Positions 245-11,045 of a DNA stretch of 64,000 nucleotides are shown in pieces (the stretch's first letter is position 1; every line of letters starts with the position of its first letter). Under the pieces are notes generated by a model, which had not been told where the DNA came from, searched no databases, and worked only from the letters and a program-made list of their open reading frames with translations. Source of the DNA: a bacterium. Lineage in GTDB: Bacteria > UBA8248. Both the position numbers and the translations under genes were made by a program. Location of the stretch: NCBI GenBank assembly GCA_965219955.1, contig OZ244799.1:736001-800000 (forward strand). Direction: 5' to 3'.

Positions 245-508
245 AATGACCCCGTAAAATAGAACTTTTACGCCAGGCGAGATGAGGCTGAAAGCGTCTC
301 TCGAAGACGTGAACGGCTCAATGCGAGAAATCCGCAAACATGGCGCTGAACCTTGACGCCGCTGCGATTATATCGGCATTATAACCGCCAACCCTGAGTA
401 CGGGAAATCTCACAGGCTTGTTTCATCGTCATGTGTCGGATGCCCCTTTCGACATCTGAAACCGAGCCGTCAACCACGGCTTCGGCGCACTGGAATCGAG
501 GGTTTCGA

Positions 509-1579
509 ATGGATTTTTCCTTGTTCTACATCCTGTATCGCCCCGAAGACATGACCGAGGTTCAGGTCCATGAGGATATGATCGTAGAGAGCATCCTGGC
601 GGATGAGTTGGGCTACTCTTGCGTCTGGTACGCCGAGCATCACTTCTCCCGGGTCGGGATGATCCCCGATCCGCTTCTCATCTGCGCCGCAGTCGCGCAA
701 AAGACGAAAAAAATTCACGTAGGCACGGCCATTTCCATCATGTCGTTCCACGATCCCATCCGCCTGGCCGAGCAGGCGGCCATGGTCGATCTCCTGAGCG
801 GCGGCAGGCTCGAGCTGGGTATCGGGCGCGGCTCCCAGCCCAAGGAGTTTCAGGGGTTCGGCGCCAAGCCGTCTGAAAGCCGCGAGCGCCTGAAAGAGGG
901 GCTCCATATCCTCTCCCGCCTTCTGGAAGGGGAGAAGGTGACGTTTGAGGGCCGGCATCATCAGTGCGCGGACGTCGAAATCTTCCCCAAGCCCCTGCAA
1001 AAGCCCAGGCCCCCCATCTGGCTGGCGGGAACGAGCCCCGAGACCTACACCTATGCGGGCGAGAACGGCTTCAAGGTGATGGCGTCTGCCGGCTTTACGG
1101 GTCCGGAAGTCTACAAGCAGAAGTTCGGGCTTTACGAGGACGCCATCCGAAAGTCGGGCGGCGACCCCGCCGGGATCGACAGGCCGCTCGTTCACCACAT
1201 CCATGTATGCGACGCCGAGGATGCGGACGAATGCTTCAACCTCACGGTGGAAGGCGAGGGCGAGTACCTGCGCTACCGGGCGAAGATGAACGAGGTGGAA
1301 ATGCCCGAGGAAGAGGCGAGGCACCTGAAGCGCAACTGGAGTTATGAACTGGACGTCGCCGAGATCGTCAGGGGCGGCGGCATCATCGCCGATCCGGGGG
1401 CCGTGGCCGAAGACATTTGCAGGCTGCGGGATGAGTACGGGGTCAATCACGTCATCCTGGCGCCCTGGCGCGGGCCGGACCACGCTTCGGTGATGCGCTC
1501 GATAGAGAGCTTTGCAAACGACGTCATGCCGCTGGTGAACGCCACCGCGCCCGTCGGCACAGGTGGAAGTCAGACTTGA
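509..1579 (+). CDS. LLM-class flavin-dependent oxidoreductase (luciferase-like)
   Basis: WYAEHHFS, PIRLAEQAAMVDLLSGGRLELGIGRG and PKPLQKPRPPIW motifs; start trimmed to ATG 509 (MDFSLF). Confidence 0.9.
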   Translation: MDFSLFYILYRPEDMTEVQVHEDMIVESILADELGYSCVWYAEHHFSRVGMIPDPLLICAAVAQKTKKIHVGTAISIMSFHDPIRLAEQAAMVDLLSGGRLELGIGRGSQPKEFQGFGAKPSESRERLKEGLHILSRLLEGEKVTFEGRHHQCADVEIFPKPLQKPRPPIWLAGTSPETYTYAGENGFKVMASAGFTGPEVYKQKFGLYEDAIRKSGGDPAGIDRPLVHHIHVCDAEDADECFNLTVEGEGEYLRYRAKMNEVEMPEEEARHLKRNWSYELDVAEIVRGGGIIADPGAVAEDICRLRDEYGVNHVILAPWRGPDHASVMRSIESFANDVMPLVNATAPVGTGGSQT

Positions 1580-1626
1580 TGTCTTGATGGTTTCTTTTGG
1601 TCTCAAAATTCAGGAGGCGCTTTGTC

Positions 1627-2607
1627 GTGGGAATCAGTTTTAGTCTTCATTTGGTGCCGGATGACATCCGGGTCGTGGCGGAGCGTTCGAAATACGCCGA
1701 GGACAACGGTTTCGAACAGGTCTGGATAGCGGAGAGCCACCTCACCTGCCGGGATCACAACATCGCGCTCGCCCTGGCGATAGAGAACACCTCGCACGTG
1801 AAAATCGGCCCCGGCGTGACGAATCCGGTGCTGCACGACGACAGCGTGGCGGCGAGCGCCATCGCCACGCTCGATGAACTCTCGGGCGGCCGCGTGCTGT
1901 TCGGCATCGGCTCGGGCGATACGCCCGTCTACACGCTGGGCAAGAAGATGGCCCGGCTCGCCCGGATGCGCGAATCCATCGCGGCCATACGCGCGTTCAC
2001 GCGCGGCGAGACGGTGGAATACGCCGAGGGCGTGAACGTGAACATGTGGTGTGAGCGGAATATCCCCATCTACACCTCCGCCGAAGGCCCCAGGACGCTC
2101 GCCATGTCGGCCGAAGTCGCGGAAGGCGTCATCGTGGGTTCTGGCGTCTACCAGGAGACGGTGGACTGGGTGATGAAGCACCTGAACGAGGGGATGGCGA
2201 ACCGCGATCCCTCCCTCGGCGAGATGGACGTCATATTCGGCGCGGTCGTCTCGGTGGATACCGACAGCGTGCGCGCGCGGGAGAAGGTGCGGGCGCGGGT
2301 GGCGAACCGCGCGCACCATAACTTCCGCATGACGCTCGACTCCGTGCCCGAGCCGTACAGGCCCGAAATCAAGCACCTCCTGGACAACTTCGACGTGAGC
2401 AACTGGCGGGATCCCAAGCACGTGCCCCTCATCACCGACTACATCCTGGACCGCTTCACCATCACGGGAACGCCCGAGGAGTGCGTCGACCGCATCCAGG
2501 AGATCGAGTCCTACGGGGTCAAGAGCATCATGATCGACCCCCCGAACCAGGATTTCGACGAATCTCTCAGAATGTTCACCGAAGAGGTTTTGCCCAGGTG
2601 CGTATGA
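1627..2607 (+). CDS. LLM-class oxidoreductase, Mer-like (possibly F420-dependent)
   Basis: IGPGVTNP, ATLDELSGGRVLFGIGSGD and GPRTL motifs; GTG start at 1627 after AGGAGG. Confidence 0.85.
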   Translation: MGISFSLHLVPDDIRVVAERSKYAEDNGFEQVWIAESHLTCRDHNIALALAIENTSHVKIGPGVTNPVLHDDSVAASAIATLDELSGGRVLFGIGSGDTPVYTLGKKMARLARMRESIAAIRAFTRGETVEYAEGVNVNMWCERNIPIYTSAEGPRTLAMSAEVAEGVIVGSGVYQETVDWVMKHLNEGMANRDPSLGEMDVIFGAVVSVDTDSVRAREKVRARVANRAHHNFRMTLDSVPEPYRPEIKHLLDNFDVSNWRDPKHVPLITDYILDRFTITGTPEECVDRIQEIESYGVKSIMIDPPNQDFDESLRMFTEEVLPRCV

Positions 2608-2655
2608 CCGCATCCCGGGCGGAATCGACCGCCTTTTTCATATGAGGAACCCAAC

Positions 2656-3054
2656 ATGGCGCTGATACCCGATTCTCATGCCGGCATTCTCGACACCAAG
2701 GCCCTCCTGTATCTGGGCACCCAGAACAAGGACGGCTCCCCGCAGGTTTCTCCCGTGTGGTTCGGCACCAACGGCGACATCATCGAGGTCAATTCGGCCA
2801 AGGGCCGCCTGAAGGACCTGAACATGCGGGCGCGCCCGCAGGTGTCCATCGCCATCGTCGACCCCGAAAACGCCTACAGGTGGGTGGGGATACAGGGTAC
2901 GGTGGTGGAGATCACCGAAAACGGGGCGGAGGAGCACATCGACGTCCTGGCGAACAAGTACCTGGGGGTGGACAGCTACCCGAACCGCCAGGAGGGGCAG
3001 GTGCGCGTGATCTACCGCATCCGGGCGGACAAGGTGTTCACCATGGGCGCGTAA
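2656..3054 (+). CDS. PPOX-class (split-barrel) putative F420-dependent oxidoreductase
   Basis: LGTQNKDGSPQVSPVWF...KDLNMRARPQVSIAIVDPENAYRWVGIQG matches the pyridoxamine-oxidase-like F420 family pattern; GAGG RBS. Confidence 0.85.
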   Translation: MALIPDSHAGILDTKALLYLGTQNKDGSPQVSPVWFGTNGDIIEVNSAKGRLKDLNMRARPQVSIAIVDPENAYRWVGIQGTVVEITENGAEEHIDVLANKYLGVDSYPNRQEGQVRVIYRIRADKVFTMGA

Positions 3055-3099
3055 GCCGCCCGGCGCGCACGATTTTTGTACGGGACGGAGACCTGAAAG

Positions 3100-4155
3100 A
3101 TGAAATTCTCGCTTTTCTATATTCCTGCTTGTCAGGAGGGAGAAAGCTACAAGCACGAGTTCGATCAGCTGATCGAACAATGCGAGGTGGCCGACGGACT
3201 CGGCTACGACACGGTGTTCCTCGCCGAGCACCACTTCTCCCGCGTGGGCATGTGCCCCGACGCCCTGATGGTCGCGCTCGCCATCGCGCAGCGAACGAAG
3301 AAGATCAGGATCGGCACGGCCATCTGCATCATGCCGTTCCACAACCCGGTGCGTCTGGCGGAGCAGGCCGCCCTGGTCGACGTGCTGAGCGGCGGCCGCC
3401 TGGAGTTGGGCGTCGGCAGAGGCTCCCAGCCCAAGGAGTTCCAGGGCTTCAACATCTCGCCGTCCGAGAGCAGGGAGAAGATGCAGGAGGGACTCGAGGT
3501 GATGACGCGCCTGCTGGAGGGCGAATGCCTCACCTATCACGGGAAGCACTACAGCTGCGTCGACGCGGAGATTTTCCCCAAACCCATCCAGAAGCCGCGC
3601 CCTCCCATCTGGCTGGCCGGCACGAGCCCCGAAACCTACGTCTTCGCGGGCCAGAGAGGGTACAACATCATGGCGTCGGGCACCTTCAAGGGGCCGGACG
3701 TGTATCTCGAGAAAATGGCGCTCTTCCAGGAGACGGTGCGGAACCGCGGCGGCGACCCGAGCGATTATCCCTCCCTCATGGCGCACCACGTCCACGTGTG
3801 CGACGACCCCGAACACGCCTGGCGGCAGATCGAACCCTCCGAATCCTGGTATCTCTCCTACCGCAGCGCGGTGAATTCCATCGAGATGCCGCTGGAGGAG
3901 AAAGAGGCCCTCAAGCGCAACTGGAGCTACGACGTCGACATCCGCCAGGTCATCGAGGGCGGCGGCGTCATCGGTCCGCCCGAGAAGGTGATCGCCGATC
4001 TCAAGCGGCTCCAGAAGGAGTTCCAGGTGAATCACATCATGATCTTCGTGCTGCGCGGCATCGCGCAGGACGAGGCGATTCAGTCGATAGAGCGGTTTGC
4101 GAAAGAGGTGATGCCCGCGTTCGCCGAAGAGCGCGCGGCGAGTTCCAGCGAATAA
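3100..4155 (+). CDS. LLM-class flavin-dependent oxidoreductase, paralog of 509-1579
   Basis: FLAEHHFS and RLAEQAALVDVLSGGRLELGVGRG; shares GSQPKEFQGF and LKRNWSY blocks with 509-1579. Confidence 0.9.
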   Translation: MKFSLFYIPACQEGESYKHEFDQLIEQCEVADGLGYDTVFLAEHHFSRVGMCPDALMVALAIAQRTKKIRIGTAICIMPFHNPVRLAEQAALVDVLSGGRLELGVGRGSQPKEFQGFNISPSESREKMQEGLEVMTRLLEGECLTYHGKHYSCVDAEIFPKPIQKPRPPIWLAGTSPETYVFAGQRGYNIMASGTFKGPDVYLEKMALFQETVRNRGGDPSDYPSLMAHHVHVCDDPEHAWRQIEPSESWYLSYRSAVNSIEMPLEEKEALKRNWSYDVDIRQVIEGGGVIGPPEKVIADLKRLQKEFQVNHIMIFVLRGIAQDEAIQSIERFAKEVMPAFAEERAASSSE

Positions 4156-4179
4156 CACCGGTATCGAGGAGAACGGAGA

Positions 4180-4779
4180 ATGTGGATATCCCCCTTAAGG
4201 CTGAATGACGCCCAGGAACCCGCGCGCGGGATTCTCGAGGGCATCCGGGCGAAACGAGGCGCGGTTCCCAAGCTGCTGCTCACGATGGCGCGCAGGCCCG
4301 AAGTGCTGAACGGACGCCAGACGATGAACATGGCCGTCCACGGCGGCAATTCGACGCTGGGCCAGAGGCGCGAGGAGCTGATCTCCTACTACGTCGCCAC
4401 CATCGGCGGGTGCTATGGCTGAACGATGAACCATGGCCAGGCTTTCCGTGCTGAAAGCGGCGACGACGTAACGCTGGCCGACGTGGCCACCGTGGTGACG
4501 GACAGGGACAATTCCCCGGCCCTCGACGATGCCGACAAGGCGATGCTCGCCTTCGCCGAAAAACTCACGTTCGACCACTACGCCATGAGCGAGGCGGACC
4601 TGGACGAGTTGCGCGAGGCGGGCTTCTCGGATGAGAACGTGCTGGACATCATCGGCTCCGTCTCGTACCGGAACATGAGCAACCGGCTGAACATCGCGCT
4701 CGGCCTGGACGCCATAGAACCCGAAGGCCCCGACGAGTTGATGGAGGTGGTGCGCTTCTCCCGAACCGCGCGGGCTTGA
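4180..4779 (+). CDS. AhpD/carboxymuconolactone-decarboxylase-family peroxidase-related protein, candidate selenoprotein (TGA 4420-4422 = Sec)
   Basis: ORFs 4180-4422 and 4426-4779 are in frame. The joined sequence EELISYYVATIGGCYG(U)TMNHG restores the AhpD E-x-C-x-x-C-x-x-x-H motif. C-terminal KAMLAFAEKLT...LREAGFSDENVLDII...NMSNRLNIALG is typical of the family. Confidence 0.85.
4436..4461 (+). promoter_or_regulatory. Putative bacterial SECIS hairpin
   Basis: GCC-[AG bulge]-GCTTTC-(CGTGCT)-GAAAGC-GGC; the G-containing apical loop starts 25 nt after the TGA. Confidence 0.6.
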
Positions 4780-4899
4780 AATCGTACATCCGTTCGCCGG
4801 CCGGGCAGGTCCGGGCCGGTGATTACCAGGCAAAATAATTGCCATCGTTCATTTGCGGCCCTCTGCGGACGCGATACAAAGCAGAAAGGAACAGTTTCC

Positions 4900-5670
4900 A
4901 TGTCAGACCTCACCATCCGTCCGCTGAACTGCGGCACCATTCACACGGATTACTCCAATATGGTGTATTGGACGAACTTCGGGACGAAACTCGAGATTCC
5001 CTCGTTCATCTACATGATCGAGGGGGCGAAGGACCACGACGGAAACGACGTGAAGGTCGTGGTCGACACCAGTTTCCTGGACCCCGAGCGCGGCGGCGCA
5101 CCCTGGCCCGCCAGCCGGGAACCCGGCCAGGGCGTGCGCGATCAGCTCGAAGGAGCGGGCTGGAAGCCCGAGGAAGTGGACATCCTCATCCTCACGCACC
5201 TCCACTGGGACCATTCGCAGAACTGCGACCTGTTCACCAACGCGATCAAGTACGTCTGGGCGGAGGAGCTTCAATACTCCATGTGCCCGGTGGCGCTGCA
5301 GGCGAAGCCCTACGACGCGCCGATCCACCCCAACACCCGCTGGCCGGTGATCGCCCAGCAGGGCATCATTTTCGAGCCCATCTGGAAGGACAATACCGAG
5401 ATCGTGCCGGGCGTCACCTATTTCCACACGCCGGGCCACACGCCGGGGCACTGCTCGGTCGCCGTGGAGACGCGCGTGGGCACCTACGTCATCGCCGCCG
5501 ACGTCATCCAGATCAACGAAGGCCTCGAGCGCCGTGTTCCCGCCGGCCAGATGTCGAGCATGCGCGACGCGATGGACTCCATCCACAAGTGCATCGAACG
5601 CGCCACGAAGGAGGAATACATCCTGCCCGGGCACGAGATTTCCGTGCTGGAGAAGGAAGTCTATCCATAG
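4900..5670 (+). CDS. Metallo-beta-lactamase-fold hydrolase, N-acyl-homoserine-lactonase-like
   Basis: THLHWDH, TPGHTPGH, AADV and PGHE metal ligands; ATG 4900 after AAAGGA. Confidence 0.85.
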   Translation: MSDLTIRPLNCGTIHTDYSNMVYWTNFGTKLEIPSFIYMIEGAKDHDGNDVKVVVDTSFLDPERGGAPWPASREPGQGVRDQLEGAGWKPEEVDILILTHLHWDHSQNCDLFTNAIKYVWAEELQYSMCPVALQAKPYDAPIHPNTRWPVIAQQGIIFEPIWKDNTEIVPGVTYFHTPGHTPGHCSVAVETRVGTYVIAADVIQINEGLERRVPAGQMSSMRDAMDSIHKCIERATKEEYILPGHEISVLEKEVYP

Positions 5671-5723
5671 GGGCGGATAACGCTCGCCGGTATGAGCGGG
5701 TGTCTGCATAAGGAGGATTCACG

Positions 5724-6101
5724 ATGGCGATGAGCGAGCGGGGCAGGGCCTTGTACGAGGAGATGAAGGCGGCGCGGGGGTTCATCTACCCGGCGTACGA
5801 ACTCCTGTGCGAGGTGGACCCGGAGCTTCTGGAGAACTACGAGAACCTGAAGAACCACATCATGAAGAAACAGGGCCCCTTTCACGAAAAATACAAGGAG
5901 CTCTTCATCGCCGTGGCGAGCGCCTCGCGCGACCCCTCCGACACCGAGGGCATCAAGAACCACCTCAAAAAGGCGCTGCAGCTCGGCGCGACCGTCGAGG
6001 AGGCGACCGAAGCGCTCGAGTGCATGCTGCCCCCCTGCGGCATGACGGCGCTCGTGGCCGGCTGCACGCAGCTCAAAGAGGTGATCGACGAGGGGTACTA
6101 G
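5724..6101 (+). CDS. Carboxymuconolactone decarboxylase (CMD) family protein
   Basis: KYKELFIAVASA...IKNHLKKALQLGATVEEATEAL pattern; AAGGAGG RBS. Confidence 0.8.
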   Translation: MAMSERGRALYEEMKAARGFIYPAYELLCEVDPELLENYENLKNHIMKKQGPFHEKYKELFIAVASASRDPSDTEGIKNHLKKALQLGATVEEATEALECMLPPCGMTALVAGCTQLKEVIDEGY

Positions 6102-6123
6102 AAGCAGGACTGAAAGCGGTTCG

Positions 6124-6157
6124 ACCGGGGGAGCCTGAAAACTCCCCCGGTTTTTTT
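6124..6157 (+). terminator. Rho-independent terminator closing the LLM operon
   Basis: ACCGGGGGAG-loop-CTCCCCCGGT followed by a T run. Confidence 0.85.
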
Positions 6158-6210
6158 GTGTGTGAGGGATGATGGTTCGAACATCGCTTCCTGCTGGTGC
6201 TGGAATTCTT

Positions 6211-6885
6211 TTCACTCCCCCCTTGAGGGGTCTGTTGAAAAAGTCCTGTCCGACCCTCGAGATTGTTCGCCGTAGGGACAGGCCTCCGTGCCTGTCCTGA
6301 CGAAGGACAACCACGAAGAGCAGGACAGGCACGGAGGCCTGTCCCTACAAAACCATCACGTCTGCGCCGCATGAACCTCCTTGCCGCCGATCCCGCATCA
6401 GGCTTTTTCAACAACCCCTTTGAGGGTCTGTTGAAAAAGTCCTCACATCTCTCTCGTCCTGAGTAGCGGCCCCTCGACTTCGCTCGGGGCAGGCTTTGCC
6501 CCCCATCTTCCTCATCCTGAGTAGCCGCCGAAGGCGGCGTATCGAAGGTCAATCGCGCCCAATGAGGAAGCGATTGCTCCGCATGTCGGAAGACGCCTTC
6601 CATCCTTCGATACGGCGCTTACGCGCCTACTCAGGATGAGGTTTTATGGCCACCTGCGCGGTAGGAAGGAGGGCCGCCGCGTAATCCCAATATGACCCGC
6701 TCCCGAATCAGGCTTCTTCAACAACCCCTCAAGGGGGAGTGGATTTCCCTGCTCCCTGGATGGCAAAGCCCTCAAGCGGGGAGGAATTGAACCTCTTGCG
6801 AACCTGCAGGGGGACCGGTCGCGTCTCCCTGCCACTTCCGTGGTTGTCCCTCAACAGGACAGGCGCGGGGGCCTGTCCCTGCCTC
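6211..6885. repeat. Composite intergenic repeat cluster (two tandem GTTGAAAA-TIR units, GTAG-type REPs, CCTCATCCTGAG hairpin element)
   Basis: TIR units at 6228-6418 and 6424-6728; the first is closely related to 54528-54738; multiple palindromes. Confidence 0.85.
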
Positions 6886-6951
6886 CGGCTACTCCAGGGT
6901 GAAAATCAATTTCCACCATGCTTTTCCCCCGGGAGTTGCGCATTCGCGATA

Positions 6952-6974
6952 AAGATGTATATAATATATATGTT
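6952..6974. promoter_or_regulatory. NsrR-type operator (11-1-11 inverted repeat)
   Basis: AAGATGTATAT-A-ATATATATGTT resembles the NsrR consensus AAGATGCATTTnAAATGCATCTT; lies immediately before the RBS of the Rrf2 gene. Confidence 0.75.
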
Positions 6975-6989
6975 TAGGAGGCGTGCTCC

Positions 6990-7430
6990 ATGCGGCTGAC
7001 CGTTCAGACAGACTATGCCCTCAGGATGCTGATGCATCTGGCCTGCCGCGCCGGTGCCCTGGTGACGATCCACGAGATCGCCGAGCGGTACGGGATCTCG
7101 AAAAACCACCTGGTGAAGGTCGCGCACGGGCTGGGCCGCGCGGGGTTCATTGAAACGCTCCGCGGGCGAAGCGGCGGCCTCAGGCTCGCCAGGCCGGCGG
7201 AGGAAATCCCCGTCGGGACGGTGGCGAGGCACACCGAACAAAACAGCGCCCTCGTCGAGTGTTTTCCGGGCGGAAGCGGGGGGTGCCTGGTGATGCCGCA
7301 CTGCAAACTGAAGGGCGTTCTGGCCGAAGCGCAGGAAGCCTTTTTCGCCGTTCTGGATCGCTATACCGTCCACGATCTGGTGAAACGCAATCCGGCGCTT
7401 CTCGAATTGCTTGCAGGAGACGGCGCATGA
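6990..7430 (+). CDS. nsrR: Rrf2-family NO-sensing transcriptional repressor (NsrR-like)
   Basis: MRLTVQTDYALRMLMHLA, ISKNHLVKV, RGRSGGLRLA and three Fe-S Cys (LVECF...GCLVMPHC). Confidence 0.8.
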   Translation: MRLTVQTDYALRMLMHLACRAGALVTIHEIAERYGISKNHLVKVAHGLGRAGFIETLRGRSGGLRLARPAEEIPVGTVARHTEQNSALVECFPGGSGGCLVMPHCKLKGVLAEAQEAFFAVLDRYTVHDLVKRNPALLELLAGDGA

Positions 7431-7876
7431 ACACCACGCATCTCAAAATCGTGGGAGAACGCCGGGCCGAGGTCCAGGCGAAAGCCGCCGCGATGGGGAT
7501 CGACGAGGCTTACGTCTCCGAACTCGTGAATGCCTTCTACAGCCGCGTCCGTGAAGACCGGCTGCTCGGGCCGATATTCGATGACGCCATCCGCGACAAC
7601 TGGGGGCATCACCTCGAGAAGATGAAGGATTTCTGGGCGACGGTGGCCTTGAACGCCGGGCGCTACTCGGGGGAGCCGATTCAGGCCCACAAGAAACTCG
7701 TGGAGGTCCAGCCGTGGCATTTCGACGTCTGGCTGGAAATGTTCGAAGAAACCTTGAAAGACACGGCGCCGACGCCGGAGGCGGCCGTCTATTTCATGGA
7801 GTACGCCGCGCAAATCGCCAAGGGGCTTCGAATCGCCATGTACGGCGCGGGCGGTTCCGGGCATCCGGTGGCGTGA
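7427..7876 (+). CDS. Group III truncated hemoglobin
   Basis: LVNAFYSRVREDRLLGPIF...WGHHLEKMKDFW...YSGEPIQAH...HFDVWLEMF; ATGA overlap with the upstream stop. Confidence 0.9.
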   Translation: MNTTHLKIVGERRAEVQAKAAAMGIDEAYVSELVNAFYSRVREDRLLGPIFDDAIRDNWGHHLEKMKDFWATVALNAGRYSGEPIQAHKKLVEVQPWHFDVWLEMFEETLKDTAPTPEAAVYFMEYAAQIAKGLRIAMYGAGGSGHPVA

Positions 7877-7961
7877 GCAATGATGCGGCATTTATCCTCG
7901 CGCCCATGTTCCGTGCCGCCGGCATCGGCGCATCACGCAATACCGGCAAGGAGGGTTCACT

Positions 7962-8243
7962 ATGAATGAGAGTGTTCCGGACGGGCTCGTCAAGTACTTC
8001 GAAAGCGAAGTCTTCACCGAGAAGACGGTTCCTGAAAGACTCCTGACCCTGCACGACACGAAGCCGGGAATATGGGCCCGAATCGTGGTGCTCGAAGGCC
8101 GCCTCGACTATGTCGTTCCCGATTTGCCCGAGCGGAACCGCCGCCTGGAATCAGGCGATTACGGCGTCATCCGGCCCGCCGAACCCCACCGCGTGGAACT
8201 CCTCGGAAAAGTCAGCTTCAAGCTGGAATTTCTGGGCGCGTAG
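7962..8243 (+). CDS. DUF1971 / YeaR-TehB N-terminal cupin-like protein
   Basis: FTEKTVPERLLTLHDTKPGIWARIVVLEGRLDY...PAEPHRVE. Confidence 0.8.
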   Translation: MNESVPDGLVKYFESEVFTEKTVPERLLTLHDTKPGIWARIVVLEGRLDYVVPDLPERNRRLESGDYGVIRPAEPHRVELLGKVSFKLEFLGA

Positions 8244-8262
8244 ACGCGGAGGACGCGGATGA

Positions 8263-8290
8263 GCAGGGGTGGTTCGCGAACCGCCCCTAC
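8263..8290. repeat. Single GTAG-type REP palindrome between convergent genes
   Basis: GCAGGGGTGGTTCGCGAACCGCCCCTAC; perfect version GTAGGGGCGGTTCGCGAACCGCCCCTAC at 50901-50928. Confidence 0.75.
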
Positions 8291-8303
8291 GGACTCAACC
8301 TTT

Positions 8304-9512
8304 CTACTCTTTATTACAATGCGCCCGCGCGGCGGTGGCGAACATGCCGGCGGCGTCGATAAGGTTCTGCGCTGGCACGCGCTCGTTCGGCAGGTGGGCT
8401 TCGGAGATGAACTCGCCGGGGCCGAAGAAGACGCCCGGAATCCCGTTCTCGATGAAGAGCCTGAGCGCGCCCGGAGACTCGATGCCGGGCAGGTACTCGT
8501 TCGGCGTCCCCCGCACGGCGGGCACGACGCGCTCCATGAGCTGCACGACGGGCTCTTCTTCCGCGATTTCCGTCACCTCGCGCGCCCCGCTCGGCATGAT
8601 CTCGACCGACGCGTCGAATTCCGGGTCATCCGCCGCGAGTTCTGCGAGGATGCCCTCTAAAGTCTCCTTGACGCCCGCTGAGGTCTGCCCCGGCAGCATG
8701 CGCACGTCGAAGGTGGCGCTGCACCGCCCGCCCACGACGTTCACGGCGGAGCCTCCGTTGATGGTGGAAAAGGCTAAAGTGCCGGGCCCCAGGAAGGGAT
8801 GCGGCGGCGGAGCGATGTGCTCGGCCCGGAAGGCGTCGATGATCTTCGCCATCTTCTCGATGGCGTTGATTCCCTTCTCGGGCACGCTCACGTGCACCGA
8901 GCGGCCGCGCACTTTTACTTCAAAGAACACCCGCCCCTTGAAGGAGCGGATGATGTTGTTGCCCGTCGATTCGGTGTAGAGGACCATGTCGCCGCCCAGT
9001 TCCCTGAAAACGCCGTTGTTGACCAGCGATTGCGCGCCGTAGTAATCGCCCTTCTCGCCGTCCGAGAGCAGGACCCAGGTGAGCGTGCCGTTCAGCGCGA
9101 TTTTCTCGTCCTTGAACGCTTTGAGCGCGCCGAGGGTGGACGCCAGCGCGCCCTTCATGTCGGCTGCGCCGCGTCCCCAGATTTCGCCGTTCTTGAGTTC
9201 GCCGCTGAAGGGGGGGACCTCCCAGGCGTCCACCTCTTCGGGGTGGACGGGCACGGTGTCCATGTGGCCGCCGATGACGAAGTGCCCGCCCGGGCCGCCG
9301 TCGCCCGTCTGGATGATGAAGTTGGGCATCCCGGCCTCGTATTCGTACGTGGTGATGTTATCGACGCCGATGGCTTTGAGTTCGGCGAGGATGCGCTCGG
9401 CCATGTCCGAGCAGTCGCCGGGCGGGTTTTCCGCCGGTATGCGAATCAGATCCTGCGCGAGATTGACGACGTAGTCCCCATCCACGGGAACCGGTGCGAT
9501 GGCGCTGTTCAT
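8304..9512 (-). CDS. M20-family metallopeptidase/deacylase (ArgE/DapE-like)
   Basis: GHMDTVP, IWGRGAADMKG, GRSVHVSVPEKGINAI and AHLPNERV. Confidence 0.9.
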   Translation of the reverse strand: MNSAIAPVPVDGDYVVNLAQDLIRIPAENPPGDCSDMAERILAELKAIGVDNITTYEYEAGMPNFIIQTGDGGPGGHFVIGGHMDTVPVHPEEVDAWEVPPFSGELKNGEIWGRGAADMKGALASTLGALKAFKDEKIALNGTLTWVLLSDGEKGDYYGAQSLVNNGVFRELGGDMVLYTESTGNNIIRSFKGRVFFEVKVRGRSVHVSVPEKGINAIEKMAKIIDAFRAEHIAPPPHPFLGPGTLAFSTINGGSAVNVVGGRCSATFDVRMLPGQTSAGVKETLEGILAELAADDPEFDASVEIMPSGAREVTEIAEEEPVVQLMERVVPAVRGTPNEYLPGIESPGALRLFIENGIPGVFFGPGEFISEAHLPNERVPAQNLIDAAGMFATAARAHCNKE

Positions 9513-9677
9513 GAAAAAACTCCTGTCAGATGGAATGAAATACTCGGGATGATGCTATCTTGATGTCAGCTGGATTCATAGCTCATTCACCAAAACGAAT
9601 CCCTCGTGCCTGGGTATTTCCGGCTCGCCCTTGAAATTTTTTATTCCAAGGAGGACTTCATAATTACTCCCCCTCAA

Positions 9678-9820
9678 GGGGCCGTTGAAAAAGTCCCGAT
9701 GAACGGGGATCGCAGGTTTTGTAGGGACAGGCCTCCGTGCCTGTCCTGACGAAGGACAACCACGGAGGGTTGTCCCTACAACCGCCAATCCTCTTTTATC
9801 AGGACTTTTCCAACAACCCC
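9678..9820. mobile_element. MITE-like TIR element with GTAG-REP cargo
   Basis: GGGGCCGTTGAAAAAGTCC...GGACTTTTCCAACAACCCC, flanked by CTCAA / CTCAG. Confidence 0.7.
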
Positions 9821-9866
9821 CTCAGGGTGGAAGTAATTGCATCATTCGAGCATGCAAGTCATCCCC

Positions 9867-11045
9867 CTACAAATTCAGCGCGAGGCGGCTCACGGTGATT
9901 TCGGTTTCCTCGAGGATTTCCGCCCGCGTCATCTTTCCGCTCAAGACGGCCGTCAACTCCTCGTGGAGCAGGTCCACGGCCTCATCCCGTGAGATTTCGC
10001 CGCGCATGACGCCGCTGATGTCGAGATCGGAGTTCTCCGCCATGCGCGCCGCCGTCCGGGGATTCGCCGTCACCTTGATGGTGGGGGAGACGGGATGGCC
10101 GATGGGGTTTCCGTTCCCGGTGTTGAAGACGATGGCCTGCGACCCGCACGCTCCGAGCGCGGTGACGTTCTCGACGCCCGCGCTCGGCGCGTCCAGGAAC
10201 ACGCAGCCGCGCTCATTCGTCAACTCACCGGGCACGATGACGTCCACGATATCGCGCGTCCCCGCTTTTTTCACCGCGCCCAGGCTTTTCTCCTCAATCG
10301 AGGAGAGCCCGCCCTGGATGTTGTCCTCCGTCGGGTTGCAGCCGATGATGTCCATCCCCATCTCGTGGGCGTAGTCCATCGTGCGCTTCACAGCATCCAG
10401 CAGCTTCCGCCGCACCTTCGGGCCGGCCGCCCGCTTCGCGAGAAGGTGCTCGGCGCCGACGATCTCCATGGTCTCGGAGAAGAGAACGACGCCCCCCGCG
10501 TCCACGATCCTGTCCGCAAGGACCCCGGTGACCGGGTTCGCCACCAGCCCGCTCGTGGTGTCAGAACCCCCGCATTCCGTGCCCAGGGTGATCTCGGACA
10601 GATCGCACCGCCCGCGCCTCGCGGCGCTTAAGTGTTGATACAATTTCTGGGCGATCTCCACCCCCCGGCTCGCCGTCTGGAGCGTGCCGCCCGTCTCGTG
10701 GACCGTGAGGGTCTCGATAGGCATCCAGGGCGATGCCTCCGCCGCCACGTCGGCCACGTCCTGCGCGCTCTTGGGCTCGAGGCTCACGACGATAGCCGCG
10801 CCCACGTTCGGGTGGCCCGCCGTGCGGCCCATGACCCGGTAGTGCTGTTTTTCATCCTCGCCGAAGAGGTTTCTCCCGAATGTCGTGTTCACGACGACCG
10901 CCTCGCGCACGAGTTTCCCGATGCGCCGCGCGAGGGGGTTGGCGTTGTCCATCGCGCTCACGACGACGAGGTGGTTCCGCGCGCCCGGCGCTCCGCTCGG
11001 CCGCCTGTAGCCCATGAAGGTGTTTCGCGGTTTTCTTCTCGGCAA
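9867..11045 (-). CDS. UxaA/GarD-family dehydratase, catalytic (beta) part without SAF domain
   Basis: FMGYRRPSGAPGARNH, GTECGGSDTTSGLVANP, GGLSSIEEKSLGA and FNTGNGNPIG; TTG start after AGGAG. Confidence 0.85.
   Translation of the reverse strand: MPRRKPRNTFMGYRRPSGAPGARNHLVVVSAMDNANPLARRIGKLVREAVVVNTTFGRNLFGEDEKQHYRVMGRTAGHPNVGAAIVVSLEPKSAQDVADVAAEASPWMPIETLTVHETGGTLQTASRGVEIAQKLYQHLSAARRGRCDLSEITLGTECGGSDTTSGLVANPVTGVLADRIVDAGGVVLFSETMEIVGAEHLLAKRAAGPKVRRKLLDAVKRTMDYAHEMGMDIIGCNPTEDNIQGGLSSIEEKSLGAVKKAGTRDIVDVIVPGELTNERGCVFLDAPSAGVENVTALGACGSQAIVFNTGNGNPIGHPVSPTIKVTANPRTAARMAENSDLDISGVMRGEISRDEAVDLLHEELTAVLSGKMTRAEILEETEITVSRLALNL

Follow-up and report, generated by a model that had tools for sequence, protein, structure and literature searches.

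We analysed a 64,000-nt stretch of a 4.28-Mb single-contig bacterial genome (G000, C1:736001-800000; hereafter the window) and found that positions 4180-4779 of its forward strand very probably constitute one gene for a 199-residue AhpD-like (TIGR01926/COG2128) thiol-selenol oxidoreductase, whose internal UGA would be decoded as selenocysteine (Sec). The first-pass annotation of this DNA had proposed that the gene is recoded rather than broken. This proposal is now supported by the Sec machinery of the genome, the retention of the TGA in 27 of 27 orthologues, the low ratio of nonsynonymous to synonymous substitution rates (dN/dS) on both sides of it, and the homologues that carry Cys in its place.

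An in-frame TGA at the second Cys of an AhpD motif

The letters at 4411-4434 (+) read TGC TAT GGC TGA ACG ATG AAC CAT, and under translation table 11 the region is divided into two open reading frames (ORFs) of 80 aa (4180-4422) and 117 aa (4426-4779). When the TGA at 4420-4422 is read through, 4180-4776 yields 199 residues with the redox motif C78-Y-G-U81-T-M-N-H85, and the complete gene (4180-4779, +) terminates at its own TGA stop codon at 4777-4779. A GAGGAG hexamer at 4166-4171 (+), 8 nt upstream of the ATG at 4180, may serve as the ribosome binding site.

The read-through protein scored above the cut-off of the NCBIfam model TIGR01926, 'peroxidase-related enzyme' (112.2 bits versus 81.8; residues 2-176), and above that of Pfam CMD (25.3 bits; cut-off 23), where the aligned residues, 40-121, span the TGA. 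A TIGR01926 search of the whole genome gave 104.4 bits at the same locus, and sub-threshold NCBIfam matches were to NF053654 and NF041238, which are models named '(seleno)protein'. Neither the 80-aa nor the 117-aa half matched any family when scanned singly against Pfam.

A family alignment of 19 sequences shows no variation at C78, position 81 or H85 and almost none at E66 (codon at 4375-4377, +), 12 residues N-terminal to C78. The TGA sits at the invariant second-Cys column, a placement far beyond chance. The spacing of Glu66, Cys78, position 81 and His85 fits the AhpD-like proton-relay pattern Glu-12-Cys-x-x-Cys-x-x-x-His, as described for PA0269 and Mycobacterium tuberculosis AhpD (PMC3141380). 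Three claims of the first-pass annotation hold on this evidence: that the TGA falls at the second Cys of C-x-x-C-x-x-x-H (sequence and family alignment), that the frame beyond it completes a family member of about 199 aa (199 aa passing TIGR01926 and CMD), and that ORF callers split the gene (the two table-11 ORFs and the fragments in public collections).

Conservation of the internal TGA and the Sec machinery

We searched 61 genomes, namely the genome itself and 60 relatives, with the protein and obtained matches in 48. Of the 22 genomes of the same genus, 21 contain full-length orthologues (84-98% identity); in the remaining one, G017 (79% complete), the paralogue alone was found. Four genomes from two other genera have orthologues at 59-76% identity. 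Each orthologue found in this way carries one internal TGA. Forty loci were translated, comprising 27 orthologues from 26 genomes (G014 is represented twice), five members of a sister clade, five distant loci with TGA and three with Cys. Their motifs are C-Y-G-U (27), U-Y-G-U (5), C-x-Y-U (5), CSFC (2) and CEYC (1), and the column of residue 81 holds TGA in 37 loci, Cys in three (L059, L060 and L061) and nothing else. Cys also occupies this column in the database proteins P0016, P0019, P0022 and P0023. The two copies in G014 (L026 on C3 and L050 on C1) are 96% and 94% identical to the window copy and would stem from a duplication or from a mixed bin.

All 27 orthologues retain the internal TGA, yet they end in different stop codons, TGA (12), TAA (11) or TAG (4); therefore, the internal TGA is under selection. 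Since the terminal stop alternates in this way, TGA is an ordinary, exchangeable stop codon in the lineage.

The Sec machinery that the first-pass annotation had suggested looking for is complete in the same genome. The tRNA-Sec gene scored 75.9 bits (gathering score 47) and was called by ARAGORN as tRNA-SeC with the anticodon TCA, selB (390.1 bits) and selA (578 bits) adjoin each other, and selD scored 332.7 bits, the three sel genes all exceeding their cut-offs. The selD gene (G000:C1:2942487-2943449, -, L019) itself contains an in-frame TGA, in the context K-A-G-G-U-G-S-K-L-G, and a strong hairpin comes after it. The in-frame TGAs of the loci examined, 13 CMD/AhpD loci and selD, fall at redox Cys columns.

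These observations bear on the best-surviving alternative, in which the UGA specifies an ordinary amino acid, whether by reassignment of the codon across the genome or by near-cognate insertion of Cys or Trp. Bacteria starved of selenium do insert Cys or Trp at UGA at a low level, which lends this explanation some ground. It is nevertheless very unlikely given that TGA acts as a stop in the lineage, as the terminal codons of the orthologues show, that a dedicated Sec machinery is present, and that the in-frame TGAs are placed at redox Cys columns.

Both flanks of the TGA under purifying selection

Compared with the window copy, dN/dS was 0.029-0.199 upstream of the TGA and 0.042-0.214 downstream in 21 comparisons; five others were dropped, owing to an 8-codon deletion (L039), saturated synonymous divergence (L045-L047) or a one-codon register shift (L048). 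Both sides of the UGA are under purifying selection. The alignment of homologues that had been proposed as a check, looking for Cys or TGA at this column and conservation on both sides, accordingly returned 37 TGA and three Cys with low dN/dS on either side. The copy in G008 (L039) lacks eight codons (..SEA-GFSD..) and retains the TGA.

A split AhpD made as two polypeptides, with termination at the UGA and restart at the AUG 3 nt downstream (4426), would agree with the gene model in the databases and with UGA-ACG-AUG being a compact stop-restart arrangement. However, the ATG that ORF callers use at 4426 is not a start codon in four of the 27 orthologues, which have ATA (L033) or CTT, CTA and CTC (L045-L047), whereas the TGA is conserved, and this disfavors a stop-restart gene. 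Such a split would also part Cys78 from His85 within what is modelled as a single helix, and neither half matches a family; we thus judge it less probable still than decoding as an ordinary amino acid. A pseudogene with a nonsense mutation in the active site, as might be supposed from the table-11 ORF callers stopping at 4422 and from public protein sets holding C-terminal fragments alone, is scarcely credible, since all 27 orthologues, drawn from 26 genomes, share the TGA, dN/dS downstream of it is 0.04-0.21 and the gene order is conserved.

Sequencing error, which the first-pass annotation had named as a possible source of the TGA, is excluded because the codon is conserved in 26 genomes. 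An independent DNA contig from another run points the same way. Parts of the stretch searched are present in 20 sequencing runs from eight studies, and the runs that hold at least half of its sequence words are labelled as marine, coral or sponge metagenomes or with a coded organism. Four runs were compared with the sequence, all as assembled contigs. The DNA contig (X8 record 15, 4234-4514) spans the TGA codon and keeps it, since its single difference lies at 4266. Two RNA-library contigs extend across the position of the codon (X15 record 2, 4175-4493; X17 record 12, 4312-4498), this being overlap in coordinates rather than agreement letter by letter, and run X16 is uninformative, having no contig over 4269-4842. 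The RNA-library contigs are no proof of transcription, as they give no ends, strand or expression level.

A candidate SECIS hairpin after the UGA

Bacterial Sec insertion sequence (SECIS) elements are described as stem-loops soon after the UGA with a small apical loop that contains G (PMC1088965). The candidate here lies at 4436-4461 (+) and consists of 3 bp and 6 bp separated by an AG bulge (GCC / AG / GCUUUC / loop CGUGCU / GAAAGC / GGC; model B). Among the folds of the 54 nt following the UGA it has the lowest free energy, -10.6 kcal/mol, and its loop begins at the 25th base past the UGA. The bulged hairpin reported in the first-pass annotation, with its loop 25 nt downstream, was thus recovered as described. 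An overlapping hairpin (model A) at 4432-4450 (+) pairs CAUGG with CCGUG around a 9-nt loop at -3.0 to -4.1 kcal/mol.

Two comparisons among homologues argue for a structured element after the UGA. First, we scanned synonymous variability in 22 same-genus orthologues, with L039 dropped, over 186 windows of 14 codons. The minimum lies right after the TGA, the windows from codons 80 and 81 having the lowest value of all 186 (0.023); the mean is 0.034 over codons 82-95 and 0.129 over the whole gene, and the low region runs to about codon 110. Second, we examined covariation across 37 Sec-containing sequences aligned without gaps, 25 of which are distinct. For model B, 78.7% of the cells are paired, both sides change in five of the nine pairs among the distinct sequences, and the covariation is 0.182 versus 0.093 when shuffled, with none of 500 shuffles reaching 0.182 and all six slid controls lower.

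In model A, the lower 5 bp are retained in nearly all of the 25 distinct sequences without excess covariation, and 15-19 of them have an unpaired upper stem. Its position is homologous to the clear, strong hairpin of distant family members, e.g. CACGGAGAG-UCU-CUCCGUG. For the orthologue group studied here, model A was rejected as the SECIS, because it folds weakly (-3 to -4 kcal/mol) and most sequences leave its upper stem unpaired.

Several results count against a firm assignment. The fold of 61 nt has z = -1.0, with 35 of 200 shuffles as stable; 39.8% of 560 40-nt windows in the same coding sequence are as stable or more, as are 32.4% of 3000 windows placed 11 nt past random genomic TGAs. 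Hairpin stability was therefore rejected as evidence for a SECIS, for these shuffle and window controls show nothing above chance. The conserved peptide H-G-Q-A-F-R-A-E-S-G accounts for part of the nucleotide conservation after the UGA, and related coding sequences can yield covariation counts above those of shuffles even where no structure exists. Two mutually exclusive hairpins both fit, and GGUC, found 20-24 nt past the UGA in eight of 11 other CxxU-type AhpD/CMD Sec candidates of the same genome, is in neither loop. Even with E allowed to reach 10, Rfam returned nothing at 4420-4480 when 3500-6500 was scanned. Because the synonymous and covariation counts are confounded by the conserved peptide and by relatedness, we grade a SECIS after the UGA as probable and leave it unmapped; its structure is most likely the 4436-4461 hairpin, with that at 4432-4450 as the alternative.

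Predicted fold and catalytic residues

The AlphaFold model, built with an alignment, is all-helical (predicted local distance difference test 94.7; predicted template modeling score 0.89), and its helices 62-76 and 79-92 flank the motif. In this model the protein is predicted to adopt the AhpD-core fold, in which the CxxC position opens the second helix of a helix-turn-helix, with Glu at -12 and His at +4. Foldseek retrieved the AhpD-core structures 2prr, 3c1l, 6k40, 2pfx and 2oyo (E = 3.8e-9 to 8.2e-7; template modeling (TM) score 0.69-0.75), and the same entries were found in PDB searches by sequence (E = 5.8e-19 to 2.8e-13) and by profile (E = 4.5e-66 to 1.3e-44). These proteins, 6K40 (Deinococcus radiodurans AhpD), 3C1L (Mlr4105), 2PFX, 2PRR and 2OYO, share with the 4180-4779 protein the fold, the length and Glu...C-x-x-C-x-x-x-H-G, but all of them have Cys-Cys whereas the latter has Sec at the second position.

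More distant relatives differ in other respects. M. tuberculosis AhpD (1GU9/1KNC), the AhpC-reducing adaptor, shares the catalytic helix-turn-helix and the spacing of Glu118, Cys130, Cys133 and His137 (as given in PMC3141380) with a profile E of 5.3e-5, but has another chain topology and low overall similarity (Foldseek E = 0.23, TM 0.46). The gamma-CMD branch of PF02627 belongs to the same Pfam family as our protein, and its members are described in PMC3141380 as having no C-x-x-C proton-relay motif. Unlike them, the 4180-4779 protein has the full Glu/Cys/Sec/His motif, and it is placed in the AhpD-like branch because this C-x-x-C-type relay motif is present. The tetrabromopyrrole debrominase Bmp8 (6OHI/6OHJ), likewise marine, has the AhpD fold (TM 0.69, E = 1.2e-6; profile E = 6.3e-10); at 17-18% identity the likeness is one of fold and profile, and serves as a lead only. 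Bmp8 is said, in work of Chekan et al. from 2019, to act as a Cys-dependent reductive dehalogenase.

In the mechanism that we propose, the UGA at 4420-4422 would be decoded by SelA, SelB, SelD and tRNA-Sec, aided by mRNA structure in the approximately 40 nt that follow. Sec81 would then take the place of the second Cys in the C-x-x-C-x-x-x-H motif, where the catalytic helix begins. By analogy with the AhpD family, Sec81 may be the attacking nucleophile, with Cys78 resolving the intermediate as a selenenyl-sulfide and Glu66 and His85 acting as the proton relay. In M. tuberculosis AhpD, Koshkin et al. (2003) reportedly identified the second Cys as the attacking nucleophile.

A member of a known selenoprotein family

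The first-pass annotation had stated that AhpD-like selenoproteins exist. This is true and even understated, for the exact family and motif are already catalogued, so that the novelty attached to the gene was overstated. An 'AhpD-like protein' (COG2128, CxxU) was described from the Sargasso Sea as a new selenoprotein family with 27 sequences (PMC1088965). In the Global Ocean Sampling data, 'AhpD-like 1' (2008) was reported with 299 sequences as the fourth most abundant family, again with CxxU (PMC2398784). Reviews from 2022 and 2026 list AhpD-like as COG2128/TIGR01926 with CxxU and one Sec (PMC9312934, PMC13188914).

The 4180-4779 gene has in common with this family (COG2128/YciW) the TIGR01926 match and CxxU with Sec at the second Cys, and a candidate SECIS hairpin follows its UGA. 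Widespread Cys homologues and a marine or host-associated metagenome setting are further features of the family that recur here. In contrast to distant members, its motif is C-Y-G-U, with Tyr second rather than third (C-x-Y-U), the SECIS upper stem seen in those members is degenerate in this gene, and it is set in a luciferase-like monooxygenase (LLM)/lactonase cluster. It is a genuine selenoprotein gene belonging to a family known since 2005, and an ordinary one because both the family and its motif (TIGR01926, CxxU) were already on record.

Paralogues and other Sec candidates in the genome

Twelve further loci of the CMD/AhpD superfamily in the genome have TGA at the second redox position. 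The closest paralogue, at about 48% identity (C1:4094872-4095435, -; L051:271-870, -), reads G-G-U-Y-G-U-A-M-N-H-G with two TGAs, and all 23 members fetched, from 23 genomes, preserve both; the terminal stops of these are TAA in 17 and TGA in six. The two members scanned against TIGR01926 scored 86.9 and 100.5 bits, above the cut-off. The neighbours of this paralogue, a ThiE-like protein, an AIR-synthase-related protein and a CoA-transferase, give no functional hint. In review tables, UxxU is listed for Prx-like, putative mercuric reductase/metal-binding and FmdB families, with AhpD-like not among them there (PMC13188914, PMC9312934), and none of the papers found for bacterial UxxU selenoproteins is on AhpD by its title; the absence is a provisional one, covering those tables and titles. 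The U-Y-G-U paralogue is thus possibly an undescribed AhpD of a diselenide type, as far as its motif indicates.

The other 11 loci, including C1:2972658-2973188, 1127660-1128175, 2871691-2872215, 2446124-2446561 and 4126985-4127218, have C-x-x-U and represent a large expansion. In eight of these 11, a hairpin with apical GGUC can be read 20-24 nt past the UGA. Several of the 11 frames run past a second TGA near the C-terminus, which may simply be the stop codon.

Gene neighborhood and proposed role

The selenoprotein gene is the fifth of seven same-strand genes with short gaps at 431-6101 (+), the core of which is syntenic across genera. Upstream, as assigned by Pfam and supported by synteny, are two LLM genes (431-1579 and 1597-2607), a PNPOx-like flavin-binding protein (2656-3054) and a third LLM (3100-4155), which ends 24 nt before the selenoprotein ATG. 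Downstream, Pfam, NCBIfam and synteny identify a lactonase-like protein of the metallo-β-lactamase (MBL) fold (4900-5670) and a small Cys-type protein of the CMD family without TGA (5724-6101). Of the 20 loci retrieved with 1.5-kb flanks, 19 have all four of the nearest neighbours and the twentieth (L026) is cut by a contig end; the LLM and MBL edges are present in all seven short-flank loci, including those of the genera at 59-76% identity. The link of the selenoprotein to a flavin-monooxygenase cluster is therefore conserved, as its neighbours are retained across orthologous loci.

No peroxiredoxin or ahpC gene was found in 431-11045, the selenoprotein being surrounded there by LLM, PNPOx-like, MBL-fold and CMD genes, with an Rrf2 regulator beyond them; the window gene thus differs from the canonical AhpC/AhpD system, which is linked with ahpC. 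Because the gene is not beside ahpC and lies within a conserved flavin oxidoreductase/lactonase cluster, the selenoprotein more likely serves the LLM/PNPOx-like/lactonase/CMD pathway, in hydroperoxide or disulfide reduction, than classical AhpC recycling. A more specific role is doubtful and offered as speculation: the CYGU protein could be a dedicated selenol redox component of the seven-gene pathway in a Nitrospinota-labelled lineage of sponge, coral and seawater, clearing flavin- or substrate-hydroperoxides or removing halogen or sulfur from a host-derived metabolite, and could belong to a lineage-specific CYGU/UYGU subfamily. The removal of halogen or sulfur is suggested by analogy with the AhpD-fold debrominase Bmp8 and with Sec-dependent deiodinases.

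The spaces around these genes have features of their own. A GC-rich hairpin without a T-run lies at 4794-4822, between the selenoprotein stop and the next gene (approximately -22.8 kcal/mol for the 63 nt past the stop), and 4780-4813 is the most variable part of the compared stretch among the metagenome contigs. Downstream of the CMD gene is a repeat-rich spacer (6209-6641) with inverted repeats up to 6641, including a perfect 28-nt inverted repeat (6272-6299 and 6321-6348) and palindromic CTTTTTCAACA...CCCTTGAGGG units at 6209-6247 and 6403-6443. The palindrome at 6259-6349 is the sole region with an Rfam match in 3500-6500, a microRNA-like one. The spacer repeats may be a dispersed element of the repetitive extragenic palindromic (REP) kind, because a similar motif, CCCCCTTGAGGGGG, trails another AhpD-like gene elsewhere in the genome. 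Further downstream, a frame with a weak match to bacterial globins (7259-7876, +; 25.1 bits) begins within the gene for the Rrf2-family regulator (6990-7430, +).

Representation in public collections and significance

In a collection of 5.8 billion proteins, the 14 closest clusters (63-96% identity) are fragments of 116-154 aa without Pfam domains, and all five sequences fetched from them begin with 'MNH'. Full-length matches start at 42% identity and are Cys proteins. The public records that hold an orthologue (26 loci) are metagenome-assembled genomes (MAGs) labelled 'Nitrospinota', 'uncultured Nitrospinaceae' or 'bacterium'. Three such MAGs (GTDB phylum UBA8248) are listed among the ten bacteria richest in selenoprotein genes, with 48-54 (BSepDB, PMC13326102). 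As public collections hold domainless 'MNHG...' fragments alone, the enzyme and the selenium dependence of its lineage are invisible to homology-based surveys.

The value of the finding is chiefly one of annotation. It adds to the AhpD-like selenoprotein family one well-documented case with comparative support from 26 genomes. The double-Sec paralogue is the more interesting lead for selenoprotein specialists, and the conserved operon context of the CYGU protein could steer a first functional assay.

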